Of a stretch of DNA of 64,000 bases, positions 13,962 through 28,440 are shown piece after piece (positions within the stretch are counted from its first letter, which is position 1; each line of letters opens with the position of its first letter). The position numbers and the translations under genes are program-made. This stretch comes from Escherichia phage AV123, in the sequence record OR352953.1; one strand, written 5' to 3'. The notes under the pieces are model-generated. The model worked only from the letters and a program-made list of their open reading frames with translations, was not told the origin of the DNA and searched no databases.

Positions 13962-14175
13962 TATTTTGAAAATTTTTATTTTTATAAAAAGGGGTGTGGG
14001 TTTCATGTACGGAAATTCACCCTCTGAATAATATATTCAGAGTAAATATTATTTTGTACTCTGTTAATAAATTATTTAATTTGTTTGTTGGATTATGATA
14101 TCTGGTTTTTAAAAGGCATACTATCTCTTAACTACTATTTATAACAGAACAGTAAAATCATTTTTATAAAAAGGA

Positions 14176-14382
14176 CAAAATTATTTAAAGTTTTTACAGA
14201 TTTTTGGATACAAATTTTGAAAATGAAAAGTTCAAGTTTGGTCAAAATTATTTAAAGTTTTTGTATGTATTTCTATCCAGATTTTGAAAATGAAAACTTC
14301 AATTTTTTAAAAATTCCCCAGTTTATTTAAAGTTTTTTTGCCTTTTTCCGTAGAAAAATCAAAAATGAAAAGTTCAATTTCG
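14176..14382. repeat. three tandem ~65 bp AT-rich direct repeats
   Basis: units at 14176, 14243, 14320 sharing ATTTAAAGTTTTT...ATTTTGAAAATGAAAAGTTCAA. Confidence 0.7.
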
Positions 14383-14400
14383 TGTTTTTATAGGTGTGTT

Positions 14401-14513
14401 AATGAGAATCATTTTCGTTTGTAAATGAGAATCATTATCATTTAACTATGTAAGTGATAATCATTCTCACTAAGAGAATGAGAATCATTAGCAAATGAGA
14501 ATTTTTCTCATTT
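14401..14513. promoter_or_regulatory. cluster of five Fur-box-like palindromes (ATGAGAAT-C-ATTCTCAT family)
   Basis: copies at 14401, 14424, 14454, 14474, 14493; one symmetric substitution from E. coli Fur core TGATAATCATTATCA. Confidence 0.5.
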
Positions 14514-14774
14514 AGAGAATAACGCGCAGGGGTGGTGTTTGTCTCGCGCTCCCGTGTCCCCTCGCCATACAATAAGAATAGCATAACCAACAACAAAAGC
14601 AAGCGATTATTTTTATCTTTACATTTCTTTACAAATTTATTTTAGACGAGCTACCAGCGATCAACCTTCCAACCAGTGCCCCCTGGTATGTTAGCCCCGC
14701 CTTTACGCCGTGGGGATGGCGCTTCCTCTTCTGTATGTAAAACAGTATAAGCCCGATCCCTGGGCTTGTCAAGA

Positions 14775-15041
14775 TTATTTTTTGTTTTCTTGCCAGGATA
14801 GGACACCTAACCAAAAATACATGTCGCCCCGCGCCCCTGGCGGGATCTTGCTTTCCCCGCCGCCACTGCAAGCCCATAGATAACCATTTGCGAACGTATC
14901 AAAATGATCTATTTCTTCCACCTTATGATCGCCCAGGTTGAGAACGGTTTCAACCTTTAAGCCCGTTGCGCTTGCTACCTGGTGCACCGTGCCGCCTTGC
15001 CAGCCTAATGAGTGCATGAGGTGTGAAGTAGTATTTGTCAT
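14775..15041 (-). CDS. hypothetical protein in GC-rich island
   Basis: 88 aa; ATG 15039-15041 with AAAGGG RBS; GC-rich unlike surroundings; overlaps a second ORF (14629-14877) in another frame. Confidence 0.35.
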   Translation of the reverse strand: MTNTTSHLMHSLGWQGGTVHQVASATGLKVETVLNLGDHKVEEIDHFDTFANGYLWACSGGGESKIPPGARGDMYFWLGVLSWQENKK

Positions 15042-15152
15042 GGTATCGCCCTTTCTTTGATGTGCGCCCTGGTTGGCGCGGTAGAAAGATAATAGCCCTT
15101 TCCTTTATAGATAGCAAGCAAAAAAGAAATGAAAAAAAGATTAAAAAAGGGG

Positions 15153-15181
15153 TTGACGGTTGGAACGATTAACGCTATTTT
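15153..15181 (+). promoter_or_regulatory. candidate sigma70 promoter
   Basis: TTGACG-17-TATTTT upstream of 15247 ORF. Confidence 0.3.
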
Positions 15182-15246
15182 GTTAGCCGTTCCAGTGTGG
15201 ATCACTGTAGCAATTGTTGTTTCAATCATTCTATAAGGCGCACACT

Positions 15247-15387
15247 ATGAGCAAGGTAATTAATCATAAAGAGTTAAACCCTACCCTTTCAATGAGTGAA
15301 TGTACCGATGGTTTTTGGCTGTATGATGATACGCGCGGTATGAATTTAGCCATGCGTGAAAAAAACAGAAGAGGCGGCGTATATTAA
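15247..15387 (+). CDS. small ORF (46 aa), possibly 5' part of a frameshifted gene
   Basis: ATG 15247; ends shortly after an A7 tract (15359-15365). Confidence 0.35.
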   Translation: MSKVINHKELNPTLSMSECTDGFWLYDDTRGMNLAMREKNRRGGVY

Positions 15388-15529
15388 AGCCCTGGGCTAC
15401 TATCAGGAGCGATTAAAGGAAGTAGAAAACAATTATAATAACCTAAAAGCAAAAGTAGATCACTTTATCAGCCAGGTAGCTCATGACGACGATGATCACT
15501 ACTGCGAACAATGTGGATCATATAGTTAA
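15356..15529 (+). CDS. small ORF in +1 frame, possibly 3' part of a frameshifted gene
   Basis: open from 15350; GTG at 15356; coiled-coil-like sequence; overlaps upstream ORF at the A7 tract. Confidence 0.35.
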   Translation: MKKTEEAAYIKALGYYQERLKEVENNYNNLKAKVDHFISQVAHDDDDHYCEQCGSYS

Positions 15530-15547
15530 AATTATCTAAAAATATTC

Positions 15548-15607
15548 TTGACAACGTTTTTTAATCTGATAAGATGTAACAAATAAGGCGGGAAGTGGTT
15601 TCCCACC
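15548..15607 (+). promoter_or_regulatory. promoter plus leader stem-loop cassette 1
   Basis: TTGACA-16-TAAGAT then GGCGGGAAGTGGTTTCCCACC hairpin, RBS, ATG 15633. Confidence 0.6.
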
Positions 15608-15632
15608 AGGCAATCAAAGAAAGGGTAACACA

Positions 15633-23961: not shown

Positions 23962-24305
23962 GTATTCTTTTTCACAATGGAAGCGACACGTAAAGAATAG
24001 GCGTAAAGGTGGCGTAAAACCATCTAAAACCGACTGTAACCGCTTAAACAAGGTAGGAATGATTAATCACCTTACCAGGATGAAAAAGCTGTTATAAAGC
24101 TATCTAGAGCGTTTAAAGCACATAGGAAATAATTTGCTTTTTATCTTGCCTTTTATCCTGCTTTTGATTATTATTATGGAACGGGCGGCACCTGGGGACA
24201 GGGGAAGATAATCACCGGAAGATCCCGCTATATATTAATAGCTAATACCTATCAAACAACAAAACATCAAAGGAATAAACTATCAAATCTTTACAATCCT
24301 ACCTA

Positions 24306-24365
24306 TTGACACCGGATCGCCCTTATACTAAGATGTATCACGTAAGGCGGGAAGTGGTTTCCCGC
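24306..24365 (+). promoter_or_regulatory. promoter plus leader stem-loop cassette 14
   Basis: TTGACA-17-TAAGAT then GGCGGGAAGTGGTTTCCCGC. Confidence 0.6.
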
Positions 24366-24384
24366 TCAATATAGGAATCATATC

Positions 24385-24615
24385 ATGATCGAACAAATTA
24401 AACGCGCTGAAGCTATTAACGGCAATGTGATCTATTCTGTCAGCAATAACGAAAAAGGCGTACCCTATGCAGCGGTGATAGTACAGCCTGACGGTGATTA
24501 TTGGTTTACTGTATACGGATCTTATTCTTTTGGGCGTCCAGTACATGATAAAATTTTGAAAGTAGCTAATCCCACTGGGAAGAATATCACAGTAGAAAAA
24601 TTTTTTGAAAAATAA
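24385..24615 (+). CDS. hypothetical early protein
   Basis: 76 aa. Confidence 0.55.
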   Translation: MIEQIKRAEAINGNVIYSVSNNEKGVPYAAVIVQPDGDYWFTVYGSYSFGRPVHDKILKVANPTGKNITVEKFFEK

Positions 24616-24690
24616 CTTGCTTTATAGCCTCTGTTAACTTATAGTTATCGTGTAGGGCAAACAATTTTAAACGGTAAACGAGGAATCACC

Positions 24691-25074
24691 ATGAGCAATA
24701 TCATCAACCTGGCGGCTACTGTAAACGGTAAAGACTTTAACGGCGCTGTAGACCGTGATCCTATGTGGTGCTTGTCAGTGTTTAAAGGTGACTTGGTTGA
24801 AGTTAGAACAACCGAAGGGTATAGCGATGATTATAAATGCGAGATCCATTTACACAACTGGTACACGGGTAAAACTTATGCACTGAATCATGCGTTTATC
24901 GGCAAGGTTGAATATAGAGAAATGATCGACGAAGAAACGGGGCAAGATTTTAGCGAGCATGTTTATATTCGTTCAGAAACATTAGCCGAACGTTTGATCG
25001 AGAAAATGAAAGCAAAAAATAAAATTAATTTATCTCATTGGATTGATATAACAAACGATCCAGCTTATCAGTAA
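24691..25074 (+). CDS. hypothetical protein
   Basis: 127 aa; promoter TTGCTT-17-TATAGT at 24617; GAGGAA RBS. Confidence 0.55.
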   Translation: MSNIINLAATVNGKDFNGAVDRDPMWCLSVFKGDLVEVRTTEGYSDDYKCEIHLHNWYTGKTYALNHAFIGKVEYREMIDEETGQDFSEHVYIRSETLAERLIEKMKAKNKINLSHWIDITNDPAYQ

Positions 25075-25087
25075 ATAACATTTCAAA

Positions 25088-25116
25088 CAAGGGCGCTTAT
25101 TGCGCCCTTTCTTTTT
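25088..25116 (+). terminator. rho-independent terminator
   Basis: GGGCGCTTATTGCGCCC then TTTCTTTTT. Confidence 0.65.
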
Positions 25117-25321
25117 ACCTAAATAAAGATGATAGCTTTTACCTATCAAAAACGTTCACCGAAAAAAGTGAATAGATCGCGGTATCGAGCTAATCAAGGA
25201 GCAGATGAACAACCATACCATGAAGATCATAAGGCGCTTACAACGTGTTTTAGACCGCTTATTTTTAATTTCTTCATGTAATTACCTGGCAAAAACAGCC
25301 TTTTTCTTGTCTTTCCTCTTA

Positions 25322-25392
25322 AATGATAATCATTCTTATTTATAGCTGATTATTTATGCAATAAATTGCATAATGCAATAATGAGAATCATT
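25322..25392. promoter_or_regulatory. two Fur-box-like palindromes
   Basis: AATGATAATCATTCTTAT at 25322 and AATGAGAATCATT at 25380. Confidence 0.45.
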
Positions 25393-25801
25393 CTTAACTT
25401 AAGACCATCTAACCTATAAAATAATAAGTTATCTAACTAAATTAAAACTAATTATCTCACCTTTATTTATAACTTACTGTTACTATCTCATTGATAACAT
25501 TGTATTAAACAATAATAACTAATATAAATCATTACTAAGCTAAATATAATCTATCTAACCCTTAAAACTACAATTATAATCTATCGAATTGTTGCACAAA
25601 GTAACTATTAAATTGTTAGTAACATTACTAAATAATTCACATCCTATCTATTTATGATCTAATCTTTACCTTCCTATCTATTACTTAGATAATCATTTCA
25701 TACAGTAACCATTTCATGTAGTAATCATTCCATACAATAACTATAACAAGAAATATAATTCGCAAGCGTATCATTAGCAGCCTATGCCGGACACATAGGC
25801 G

Positions 25802-25948
25802 GCTAATAATAACGCAACTACACACCCCACATAATAACCATCACCGATAGTTATTATTTGTGCTTATGTAGCTTGCAACAATTGCAAGCGCAACAATATA
25901 CTAGGGTATATTGTATCCCTTACATTGTTGCGGTGCGTTATTATTAGC
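25802..25948. repeat. long-range inverted repeat with internal palindromes
   Basis: GCTAATAATAACGCAAC at 25802 versus GTTGCG(GTG)CGTTATTATTAGC at 25927; inner ACAATATAC..GTATATTGT. Confidence 0.6.
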
Positions 25949-26241
25949 TAATGTTTAGAACATTGGCTATAATATAAGCTATCCAATAATAAACATGGTG
26001 AATAATGACACTGATGATCATAATGCGCCACCCTCCAGGGGGCGCTATGTGAACACAAAGAAATCTTTCTTGTCAAGAAAAATATCACCATTATTGCGCA
26101 AAATTATTTATATCTGAATAGATGATTTTTCATACTATTGCCCCCTTGATTATTACCATTTGTTGAGCCTACTTTCTTAAAAGCGCAATAAAATAGAATT
26201 ATATTGATTTTTAGTCGGTTTTATAGTACAGAAAGTATGCA

Positions 26242-26456
26242 AATGATAATCATTATCAGCTATCTTCCACGGGTGGCACTATTTCACACCAGATCATTTC
26301 ATTTGGCAAGGTGTATATAGATGTTTAGACTTGCCAAGCCATTGATTTCCTTAGAATTTATCTGTTTTGTTGTGAGTAGTACCTTTCTTGCTTAGAAAAT
26401 AATCAAAAGTCTTATAAGTCATTGAATGATAATACAAATGATAATTATTCTCATTG
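26242..26456. promoter_or_regulatory. Fur-box-like sites
   Basis: AATGATAATCATTATC at 26242 (15/15 to Fur core) and GAATGATAAT..ATGATAATTATTCTCATTG at 26424. Confidence 0.5.
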
Positions 26457-26814
26457 ATATTTGAGGGGGACGGTCGGCAGAAATCGGGGGGTGCTGAAAA
26501 TCGCGTTAAGCACCTCTCGCAAGCGAGCAGTATTTTGCGGCAAGTTATTGATATTATTGACTTTACGCTTATGAAAAGGGGGTGTGTCGAAATAAATCGG
26601 GTATACCGGAAAATTTTTGTGGCATAGATATTTATTTGTCTATATTATGTACAAAGGGGTGTGTTAAAAATAATAGGTATATATAGAATAATTGATAGGG
26701 AATATCTATACTAATTCCTCCATTAATGATATTCCTATGCTACTGCTCTTGTAATAGATGAAAAGACGCTGTATGATGTGTGGCATGAAACGTAAACTTA
26801 TAAAGGAGTCTGAT

Positions 26815-27180
26815 ATGTGTGTTCCTCTTAGCAGTCCACTGCTGTTAGAATTTTACAAAGCATGGATGCAAGATCATTCCTCAATGCATCGTGAGAATGT
26901 TGGTTTGTGTATTTGCCTTATGGATTATCTGGCAACCACTATGTCAAAGAAAAAACCTACGCGAGAAGATATAGAACATTTCAAAATGGTTCGCAGTAAA
27001 ACGCTGGAAGAGATGAAATTGCAATTCACGTGTGCTGGGCTATCCTCCTTCCTGCCCTTTAATGATGATCTTCTGTGTTATGAAGATGAAGGTAAGAAAC
27101 ATTCTTGCCATACTAACCCAGGGAGATTGCAGTGGGTGAAAGACAGACTCGAAGATGCAAATAATGCTTGCATTGAATAG
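26815..27180 (+). CDS. paralog family A protein (copy 1)
   Basis: LLEFY, GLCICL, PFN, RLQWVKDR motifs shared with 28961 and 29953; start reset to ATG 26815 (AAAGGAG RBS). Confidence 0.6.
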   Translation: MCVPLSSPLLLEFYKAWMQDHSSMHRENVGLCICLMDYLATTMSKKKPTREDIEHFKMVRSKTLEEMKLQFTCAGLSSFLPFNDDLLCYEDEGKKHSCHTNPGRLQWVKDRLEDANNACIE

Positions 27181-27250
27181 AAATGCCTGTACACTGTGTT
27201 CCATAAGATATGCAATATCGCGCATAACAAACTACTAATGAGAGGTGTAA

Positions 27251-27568
27251 ATGAGAACCTTAGCTTTGTATATTGATCCTCACTCCATTCGAGAAATGCG
27301 AGATGTACAACAGGATTATGAATTCTACCCAGAAATTTGTGAACGCTATGAAACTATTCTTAGTTCTGTAGAAGATCCAGATACTAGTGAAACAGGTGTT
27401 TCCCACTTACTGTGGATGTTGAATGAAATTCAGGATGGGTGTAATGATATGTCTGAAACCAAACGCCATCGTTGGCTAGGCTATATTCAGGGTGTTATGG
27501 TTATGAAAAACCTTATTACAGTGAATGATGAACGTAATGCTACACGCCCCGTCTTTAATGGAGCATAA
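27251..27568 (+). CDS. hypothetical protein
   Basis: 105 aa; GAGAGG RBS. Confidence 0.55.
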   Translation: MRTLALYIDPHSIREMRDVQQDYEFYPEICERYETILSSVEDPDTSETGVSHLLWMLNEIQDGCNDMSETKRHRWLGYIQGVMVMKNLITVNDERNATRPVFNGA

Positions 27569-27569
27569 C

Positions 27570-27785
27570 ATGAAAAGCATTCAGGTGTGTATTGAAAATA
27601 ATTGTGGTTATCTGGGATTGACACATGTTGCTTTCCCTCTTATGTTAGATGCCGATATCGCTTACAGCGGAGTTGCTTATGTGTCATTCAAGACAATGAG
27701 CCAAGTACCTGGCTGGAAGTGGGAAGTAGTTGATGTTGTTGAAGGAGAAGACTATGTTTTCCTTCCACACGAATATACTGTTTAA
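27570..27785 (+). CDS. hypothetical protein
   Basis: start reset to ATG 27570. Confidence 0.5.
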   Translation: MKSIQVCIENNCGYLGLTHVAFPLMLDADIAYSGVAYVSFKTMSQVPGWKWEVVDVVEGEDYVFLPHEYTV

Positions 27786-27799
27786 AAGAGGAAAAGAAG

Positions 27800-27976
27800 A
27801 TGGATAAAGAGACTACTGTGTACTTAGTAACAAAGAATACCCCAGGCTGGAGCCAATGCAGCACTGTACCTTACAAAATCTGTGCAACACTAGAACTAGC
27901 ACAACGTGCAGAAGCAGAAGTGAATGCCATGCAATACAGCTATGGTGAAATCATTCCTTTTACTCTTGAACAATAA
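27800..27976 (+). CDS. small hypothetical protein (58 aa)
   Basis: hand-translated; AAGAGGAAAAG RBS. Confidence 0.45.
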   Translation: MDKETTVYLVTKNTPGWSQCSTVPYKICATLELAQRAEAEVNAMQYSYGEIIPFTLEQ

Positions 27977-27987
27977 GGAGTTGTGTA

Positions 27988-28440
27988 ATGTTTGAAATTG
28001 GTAAAGTGTATCGTTTTAAAAACCCATCTTATATCCGTAAGTTTGCTAACGTGTCTGAGTGCAATAGCAGGATTGCTTCTTTTTTAGGTGATTCCTATTT
28101 TCGTGTATTAGATGTGGATGATTGGTATGGTGTCACTGCTTTGCAATCCTTAGCAGGAGAACAAGAAATTATCGCTCAAAATGAAGGAGACTTTCTTCAG
28201 TGTTACACGTTGCTTGCAAAAAGTGAGTTTGAGTATTTTGTAGAAGTTTTAGAGGAAGCACCAAAAAGTAAACACGAAGAGAAATACCTGCTTGTAGTGG
28301 ATGGAGTTCCGATCATGGAAACCATCTCCCGTGAGGAAGTTGAAAAAGAGGCGAAACGTTACAAGCTGAATCGTACACAGAGTGTAGTTGAAGTCTATTC
28401 TCTTGTTGGTGTTGCAGATATTAGTGTGAACATTGTATAA
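27988..28440 (+). CDS. hypothetical protein
   Basis: 150 aa; AAGGAG RBS. Confidence 0.6.
   Translation: MFEIGKVYRFKNPSYIRKFANVSECNSRIASFLGDSYFRVLDVDDWYGVTALQSLAGEQEIIAQNEGDFLQCYTLLAKSEFEYFVEVLEEAPKSKHEEKYLLVVDGVPIMETISREEVEKEAKRYKLNRTQSVVEVYSLVGVADISVNIV

Follow-up and report, generated by a model that had tools for sequence, protein, structure and literature searches.

A probable genome-end region with a folded element and Fur-like boxes in the longest gene-free stretch of a 64-kb sequence of Escherichia phage AV123

Terminal repeats of phi92-like phages and the gene-free region of AV123

Genomes of the phage subfamily Stephanstirmvirinae were reported to end in direct terminal repeats (DTRs). 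Two copies of 343 bp each are annotated in the phi92 record (NC_023693; features PHI92_DTR-L and PHI92_DTR-R), and a 342-bp DTR was typed with PhageTerm in BME3 (PMC12210895). The sequence analyzed in this work, 64,000 nucleotides of Escherichia phage AV123 (record OR352953.1; one strand, 5' to 3'; “the window” in what follows), belongs to a virulent phage assigned to Justusliebigvirus, the phi92-like E. coli myophages of this subfamily, and contained 1683 bp (positions 25075-26757) without any open reading frame (ORF) of at least 70 amino acids. Positions 26166-26508 of this gene-free region aligned base for base, end to end, with both annotated phi92 copies. The terminal repeat itself is known biology, the same element as in phi92 and BME3; the region that surrounds it is probably a cis-acting genome-end and concatemer-junction region, in which cutting, duplication of the repeat and early control would take place.

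The correspondence with phi92 and BME3 included the length of the repeat, its boundaries and its position between gp248 and the left-end genes. The left flank of the gene-free region was the homologue of phi92 gp248, the last phi92 gene (24691-25074, plus strand), and the right flank consisted of homologues of the first left-end phi92 genes, starting at 26758 (first gene 26758-27180, plus strand); the same context, after a gp248-like gene and before the left-end early genes, was also found in relatives. Several database records started or broke at the repeat boundaries: the BME3 record (PP239276) at window position 26507, those of PD06 and PHB05 at 26165, and those of VEcB and W22 within approximately 10 nt. 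A single copy of the DTR is present in the window because the assembly collapsed the two virion copies. The left chromosome end would begin with AGCCTACTTTC..., and the right end would finish with ...GAAAATCGCGTTA. In the phi92 and BME3 records only the repeat is annotated, whereas the folded element, the Fur and IHF sites and the cut-site motifs described below are not.

The two boundaries were conserved as short motifs. TGTTG^AGC, at the left site, was invariant in all 18 homologues reaching it, and CGCGTTA^AGCAC, at the right site, was kept in 16 of the 17 homologues long enough to reach it, the exception being PsgM04F (CGCGTTC^AGCAG). The distance between both sites, that is, the length of the putative DTR, ranged from 329 to 420 bp in 18 relatives. 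The left site is an indel hot spot: the 8-mer ATTTGTTG, which ended exactly at the left terminus (window 26146-26165), was present in 1-4 copies in close relatives, with insertions of 22-54 bp (comparison of the window with phi92, L004; BME3, L019; and a further relative, L021). The right boundary was spanned by a G-rich repeat, already noticed as repeated motifs in an earlier sequence-only reading of this DNA; its three copies started at 26463, 26576 and 26653 and were partly conserved among five genera; the word AAAGGGGTGTG was found three times in the window (13988, 26576 and 26653) against 0.75 expected.

The concatemer junction of the T7 group contains a 160-bp terminal repeat with short flanking repeats, and this repeat is duplicated before packaging. 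Repeat duplication and a hairpin DNA intermediate were described during T7 infection (PMC4281155). The region of AV123 was similar in having a short, non-permuted direct repeat with sequence-specific ends, presumably present once per junction and in need of duplication, short variable repeats beside a boundary, and many inverted repeats clustered in one element that flanks the terminal repeat on the right-end side. It differed in the absence of sequence similarity, in having a multi-helix junction rather than a simple snap-back, and in the predicted sites for the host proteins Fur and IHF, which T7 does not have. Its proposed working parallels that of a T7-type concatemer junction, but the region lies outside that family. 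The class II pause word of T7, ATCTGTT, was present at 26361-26367 but not conserved in the five-genus alignment; to our knowledge, phi92-type phages have no T7-type RNA polymerase, so class II pausing cannot apply.

The sequence-only reading had singled out positions 25075-26757 as the longest ORF-free stretch of the window, which proved correct, and had suggested an origin, a packaging site or terminus, or genes for small non-coding RNAs (ncRNAs); the phi92 DTR alignment and the start of the BME3 record bore out the second of these options. The next-largest non-coding hub of the window (13962-15632) was interrupted by two small minus-strand ORFs. In a complete relative with a genome of 148 kb, the homologous gap (1837 bp) was also the longest ORF-free gap, and gaps of 1.5-2.0 kb were present at the same place in relatives of other genera. 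The gene-free stretch was 92-98% identical to approximately 47 Justusliebigvirus genomes and, with the weaker matches, was conserved across 139 phage records. The whole region was aligned among five lineages of five genera (alignment A3: AV123, phAPEC8, ukendt, PsgM04F and one Klebsiella phage): mean column identity was 60%, with many indels, and most of the DNA had drifted. Conserved islands up to the left end of the repeat were a terminator (25089-25109), a non-coding block (25120-25310), Fur-like boxes 1 and 2 with a palindrome (25319-25395), the folded element (25780-25948) and the left cut site. Those inside the repeat were Fur-like box 3, a -35-like TTGACA, an IHF-type site, and the invariant TAAGTCATTGAAT followed by Fur-like box 4 and CATTGATATTTG; those on the right side were the right cut site (CGCGTTA^AGCAC) and a block just before the first gene. 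The coordinates of all these features are summarized in Table 1.

Ten ORFs of 30-57 amino acids in the region were not kept as ORFs among relatives. In tblastn searches they gave weak matches in several overlapping frames and on both strands, with stop codons shifted between relatives, which indicates conservation of the DNA and not of coding sequence. Several of the records with the homologous region (Nernie, cardinal, KMB37, J-01, PsgM04F and Tr1) annotate 7-9 short “hypothetical proteins” there; these are probably over-calls of the gene callers, since the ORFs are not conserved. No gene was found in a search for tRNA and tmRNA. Some matching records carried unexpected host names: records labeled “Campylobacter phage” were 94% identical to the region (accessions of the doubtfully labeled set: MG065639, MG065656, MG065645, MG065689, OR584014 and OP562383), and “Pseudomonas phage PsgM04F” and “Acinetobacter phage ABPW7” matched part of it at approximately 74-80%. 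All of them belong to the same subfamily as AV123, one of enterobacterial phages, so the host labels look doubtful.

Table 1. Features of the gene-free region of phage AV123 (window coordinates). Scores of Fur-like boxes are matches to the 19-bp E. coli Fur consensus; binding sites and promoters are predictions.
Feature	Position	Strand	Remarks
Intrinsic terminator	25089-25109	+	Closes the rightward operon ending with the phi92 gp248 homologue
Conserved non-coding block	25120-25310	none	Motifs TGATAGCTTT..., CACAG..AAAAGTGAATAAATCGCG.TAT, GCGCTTAGAGAGCGTTTTAGACCGCTTA
Fur-like box 1, TTAAATGATAATCATTCTT	25319-25337	none	14/19
Palindrome TTATGCAAT-AA-ATTGCATAA	25354-25373	none	Between Fur-like boxes 1 and 2; read from sequence
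Fur-like box 2, AATAATGAGAATCATTCTT	25377-25395	none	15/19; 16/19 in phi92, arall and PATM
AT-rich, G-poor tract	25400-25760	G-poor on +	78% A+T, G 5%, C 17%; strongly strand-asymmetric
Folded element, four helices, ~170 nt	25780-25948	- (tentative)	~220 bp left of the repeat, adjoining the G-poor tract
Helix H1 (hairpin)	25780-25786/25794-25800
Helix H2 (closing stem, 15 bp)	25802-25816/25934-25948		Long-range inverted repeat, arms 100% complementary
Helix H3 (enclosed hairpin)	25834-25842/25846-25854
Helix H4 (enclosed hairpin)	25871-25878/25882-25889
Genus-specific spacer	26005-26078	none	Degenerate Fur-like box 26001-26025 (14/19), hairpin, palindrome
Left-terminus cut site ATTTGTTG^AGCC	26158-26169	+	First base of phi92 = window 26166
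Direct terminal repeat	26166-26508	+	343 bp; homologous to phi92 DTR-L and DTR-R
Fur-like box 3, GCAAATGATAATCATTATC	26239-26257	none	17/19; inside the repeat; conserved in 5 genera
Best sigma-70-type promoter candidate, TTGGCA-17-TAGACT	26303-26331	+	Inside the repeat, rightward
IHF core-consensus site AATCAATGGCTTG	26335-26347	-	Mid-repeat; predicted
Fur-like box 4	26434-26458	none	Two overlapping 14/19 matches; contains TGATAATTATTCTCA; inside the repeat
G-rich repeat, GGGGG..G.GTCG....AAATCGGG	26463-26677	+	Three copies of ~25-40 bp; spans the right boundary
Right-terminus cut site GAAAATCGCGTTA^AGCACC	26496-26514	+	Last base of phi92 = window 26508; BME3 within 1 nt
Conserved block upstream of first left-end gene	26650-26718	+	Promoter candidate GTGTTA-17-TAGAAT, 26661-26689

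The folded element, the Fur-like boxes and the other elements of the region

The sequence-only reading had described a long-range inverted repeat enclosing palindromes. This repeat was real; its second arm had been placed at 25927, which is the start of a bulged extension of the arm, and it does enclose hairpins (25834-25854 and 25871-25889). The element was analyzed with RNAalifold in 21 distinct homologues from GenBank phages, IMG/VR and metagenomes: 39 pairs were found in four helices, with compensatory double changes in 12 of them. Pairing was kept in 97.8% of the alignment cells versus 90.0% in shuffles, the observed values being reached by none of 500 shuffles, and fell to 22-46% when partners were slid by 1-3 columns. 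Helices H1 and H2 (22 pairs in 21 sequences) exchanged Watson-Crick pairs only for other Watson-Crick pairs, neither broken cells nor G-U pairs occurring in them, and the stem sequence of H3 differed in almost every lineage. The folded element is maintained by compensatory changes. One additional hairpin (approximately 25890-25925) was specific to Justusliebigvirus. A covariance model found no second copy of the element in the window.

The element was strand-biased. Folded as single-stranded DNA, it was far more stable than shuffled sequence on the minus strand (z = -10.0) and on the plus strand (z = -8.8). All seven independent non-Watson-Crick events were A.C on the plus strand, equivalent to G.T (or G.U) on the minus strand; no event of the opposite kind was seen (two-sided probability of approximately 0.016 under strand neutrality; two alignment rows shifted by one column were set aside in this count). 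This bias suggests a function of a single strand, probably the minus strand, and speaks against a palindrome that a dimeric protein would recognize as duplex DNA. The primosome assembly sites of the G4 and phiX174 types are multi-hairpin folds of one DNA strand, approximately 100-170 nt long. The element of AV123 resembles these single-strand initiation signals in its multi-hairpin fold, its strand bias being seen in the tolerated mismatches, but shares no sequence similarity with them.

Neither the terminal repeat itself nor a family of boxes resembling operators of the host iron regulator Fur had been recognized by the sequence-only reading. E. coli Fur operators have the 19-bp consensus GATAATGATAATCATTATC, or TGATAATnATTATCA in the 7-1-7 form. 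A repeat family found at 25321, 25379, 26241 and 26436 matched this consensus. Box 1 had a core (AATGATAAyCA) invariant in the five genera; box 2 started 58 bp after box 1, with the same spacing in the Klebsiella phage; box 3 contained a perfect 7-1-7 motif (TGATAATCATTATCA, 26244-26258). The boxes held their position in Phapecoctavirus, the Klebsiella phage and PsgM04F even though their flanks were barely alignable. Positions with at least 15 of 19 matches numbered 8 in the window, versus 0.58 expected from first-order Markov simulations, and 11 in the complete genome of a relative, versus 1.0 expected from simulations of the same kind; all four matches of at least 16/19 in the relative, and 7 of the 11, were located in two non-coding hubs, the present region and the hub of the tandem array at window 14398-14510. 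Such matches were hardly ever produced by simulations that took the composition of the AT-rich region as their model, and 50 kb of replication and structural genes had none above 15/19.

As a positive control, 26 kb of the E. coli K-12 ent-fep cluster were scanned: the four matches of at least 15/19 were all located in the fepD-entS and fepB-entC intergenic regions, which are Fur-regulated. The sites of the cluster scored 13-16/19 (the fepA-fes region only 13) and those of the phage 14-17/19, and box 3 and the match in the fepB-entC intergenic region had 16 identical bases. The phage boxes therefore match the consensus as well as the genuine ent/fep operators, and like these they occur in arrays; they differ in being present in a virulent phage, partly inside a terminal repeat and without any iron-related gene nearby. 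A weak leftward promoter candidate (GTGCCA-16-GATAAT, 26279 to 26252) had its -10 element inside box 3, and another was located near 26286. BLAST of the box array against E. coli genomes gave few and uninformative matches, located on small plasmids, the query being too short for the size of the database. No report of Fur boxes in lytic phages was found in the searchable literature. Fur-like boxes of 14-16/19 were also seen in the distant relatives L015, L016 and L018 (61-79% identity in the gp248-like protein), which had additional genes after the gp248 homologue.

A second Fur-like array, with five tandem boxes (14398-14510; 14-16/19), was found in the hub 13962-15632. This hub was conserved in phi92 and also contained a 67-bp tandem repeat in two copies (14176-14306) and a near-consensus minus-strand promoter (TTGACA-17-TATACT, 14772 to 14744). 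A small RNA in this hub was considered and discarded, since 14505-14740 (minus strand) folded no better than shuffled sequence.

The putative IHF site in the middle of the repeat showed the pattern WATCAANNNNTTR in the five genera, according to our reading of the aligned rows. Another match to the IHF core consensus (26541-26553, minus strand) was found just outside the right terminus; the Klebsiella phage shared this match, phAPEC8 did not. IHF shapes the DNA-protein complex at lambda cosB, and the predicted site of AV123 is comparable in that a host DNA-bending protein would be located beside a terminase cut site. There is also some likeness to the lambda origin (iterons, AT-rich stretch and palindrome), as an AT-rich stretch lies beside symmetric elements. 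The differences from lambda are its cohesive ends instead of repeats, the lack of conserved iterons in AV123 and the lack of homology. The rightward promoter candidate inside the repeat had a -35 of TTGACA in phi92; this -35 was kept in Phapecoctavirus, where the -10 was weak.

The intrinsic terminator that follows the gp248 homologue combined an 8-bp stem, in which 6 pairs were G-C, with a downstream TCTTTTT; the stem was invariant in 12 homologues, and the terminator is annotated in the PATM and phAPEC8 records. The block 25120-25310 was the part of the region most widely conserved at the sequence level, with matches in the rV5-like phage Av-05, the 54-kb phage record 24-2-1 and Klebsiella FBKp34; its ORFs of 50 and 46 amino acids were not kept in relatives, and RNAalifold found no covarying structure beyond the terminator. 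In the palindrome between boxes 1 and 2, TATGCAAT...GCATAA was kept in the five genera.

The low-complexity AT-rich tract (25400-25760) was present as the sequence-only reading had described it, with recurring words (TATCT/ATCTA) and, inside it, a 16-bp tandem repeat in 3.2 copies (25690-25741). Its composition was kept in relatives (G 5-11%), and the tract, AT-rich like the unwinding elements of origins, is a candidate DNA-unwinding or R-loop zone. Its sequence, its length, its words and the number of repeats were not conserved in other genera, and the tandem-repeat number differed even between close relatives. The palindrome TTTCTTGTCAAGAAA, given in that reading at about 26061, does exist and starts at 26064 (26064-26078), in a spacer that also contained a hairpin (GCGCC-N11-GGCGC, 26026-26046); this spacer (26005-26078) was conserved within Justusliebigvirus but not across genera. 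Lacking conservation outside the genus, the words of the tract, its tandem repeat and the palindrome at 26064 were treated as compositional or genus-specific.

Proposed working of the region and alternative explanations

Under the genome-end reading, replication would yield head-to-tail concatemers in which neighboring genomes have a single repeat between them. During packaging, terminase would cut at both boundary sites, and this repeat would be duplicated, as was proposed for T7-type phages. The folded element may be cis-acting in single-stranded form, the minus strand being the likelier one, either in repeat duplication and packaging or in priming beside the easily melted tract. The repeat and the DNA on its left would serve as binding sites for host Fur and IHF, which may couple transcription of the genome end to iron status or shape a DNA-protein complex. 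The left-end early genes would be started by the promoter candidate in the repeat and by that of the conserved block before 26758. A bolder version can be formulated, in which approximately 12 genuine host Fur operators per virion genome (the two hubs and both terminal repeats) would sense iron at DNA entry or, at hundreds of copies, titrate Fur and switch on host iron uptake, and in which a folded DNA or RNA element, strand-specific and subfamily-wide, would duplicate the repeat or prime replication; this version is speculative and, on the whole, doubtful.

Several observations weigh against the genome-end reading or its parts. The chromosome ends of AV123 at 26166 and 26508 were placed by homology with phi92. 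In this genome the left and right cut sites were alike at only 7 of 15 positions, a likeness reached by 7% of background windows, and both sites had been located with patterns taken from the same alignment, so a terminase recognition word common to both is something that we infer; their common core was only GTTR^AGC (9-11 of 15 positions were alike in some lineages). The cut sites had also been considered as a long direct repeat, a candidate dropped because only this core was common and 7/15 is not significant by itself. The cut motifs, and the folded element in searches with the covariance model, were absent from the stretches fetched for the distant relatives L015-L018, and the process in which the folded element would take part is likewise one that we infer. 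Binding of Fur to the boxes and of IHF to the repeat is predicted from the letters of the sites. The boxes were not clearly placed over strong promoters, no conserved strong promoter overlapped a box, and the array 14398-14510 was far from any gene start; with the boxes off strong promoters, an architectural or Fur-titrating role is no less plausible than simple repression.

The core of the region (25400-25950) might also be a replication origin, where the G-poor tract would melt or form R-loops with a leftward transcript and the minus-strand fold would load primase and helicase. This explanation, one of those offered by the sequence-only reading, accounts for several features: the AT-rich, strand-asymmetric composition kept even though the sequence is not, the seven mismatches tolerable on the minus strand only, which are easier to reconcile with a function of one strand than with a protein site on duplex DNA, the very stable fold of the single-stranded DNA next to the tract, the ATTAGCA-type words that recur around the folded element in relatives, and the location in the largest non-coding gap of the genome. 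The usual marks of an origin were missing: no DnaA boxes were found in the region, there were no conserved iterons (the tract repeats were not conserved and vary in number among close relatives), GC skew followed gene orientation without an origin signal, and no conserved promoter for priming was found. An origin here is possible, if rather unlikely, and it would be compatible with a terminus, as both could coexist. It is less probable still that 25780-25948 forms part of a leftward ncRNA acting as RNA, whose promoter might lie, for example, in the right-end repeat copy. The covariation was of the kind seen in structured RNAs, the mismatches were wobble-compatible on the minus strand only, and the weak leftward candidates at 26279-26252 and near 26286 could serve as promoters. 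No Rfam family was matched, either by E-value in 24000-28000 (even at E ≤ 1) or at gathering thresholds in the whole window; no convincing conserved promoter or intrinsic terminator flanked the element; the complete lack of G-U in H1 and H2 is unusual for RNA; and the literature search found no transcriptome of this phage group.

The likeness to Fur operators could be coincidental, the boxes being operators of a phage regulator or plain AT-rich palindromes. Their conserved core (AATGAnAATCATT) is a short AT-rich palindrome in DNA with 30-37% GC, the early genes of phi92 include a predicted transcription regulator (gp005 annotation), and the position of the boxes, not clearly over promoters, would agree with such an explanation. 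Coincidence is nevertheless unlikely: matches reached 17/19 with the flanks included and extended to a perfect 7-1-7 motif, box 3 shares 16 bases with the fepB-entC match, the simulations, including the one with AT-rich composition, almost never gave such matches, and the same scan applied to the ent-fep cluster pointed only to two Fur-regulated intergenic regions. That the region is a non-functional, low-complexity spacer with symmetric elements arisen by chance is barely credible. It would account for the lack of conservation of the AT-rich words, the 16-bp repeat and the palindrome at 26064 outside the genus, but not for the islands invariant across five genera, the compensatory changes, the motifs enriched over simulations and a gap kept at 1.5-2.0 kb in all relatives. 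The genome-end reading remains the one favored here.

Significance for phi92-like phages

As a probable genome end, the gene-free region of AV123 is of a common type, and its content is unusual and open to experiment: neither the folded element nor the cut-site motifs nor the arrays of host-regulator sites in a virulent phage appeared in the searchable records and papers. The recognition of genome ends and the duplication of the repeat in phages with short DTRs are poorly understood outside T7, and the papers searched contained nothing on end processing in the phi92/phAPEC8 group, which is widely used in phage-therapy collections. The two cut sites, the four-helix element with its predicted active strand and the IHF-type site constitute exact, conserved targets for mutation. 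The region would be better annotated as a terminal repeat plus regulatory DNA than as 7-9 “hypothetical proteins”. The arrays of Fur operators, if they are bound, would link a strictly lytic phage to the iron regulation of its host.

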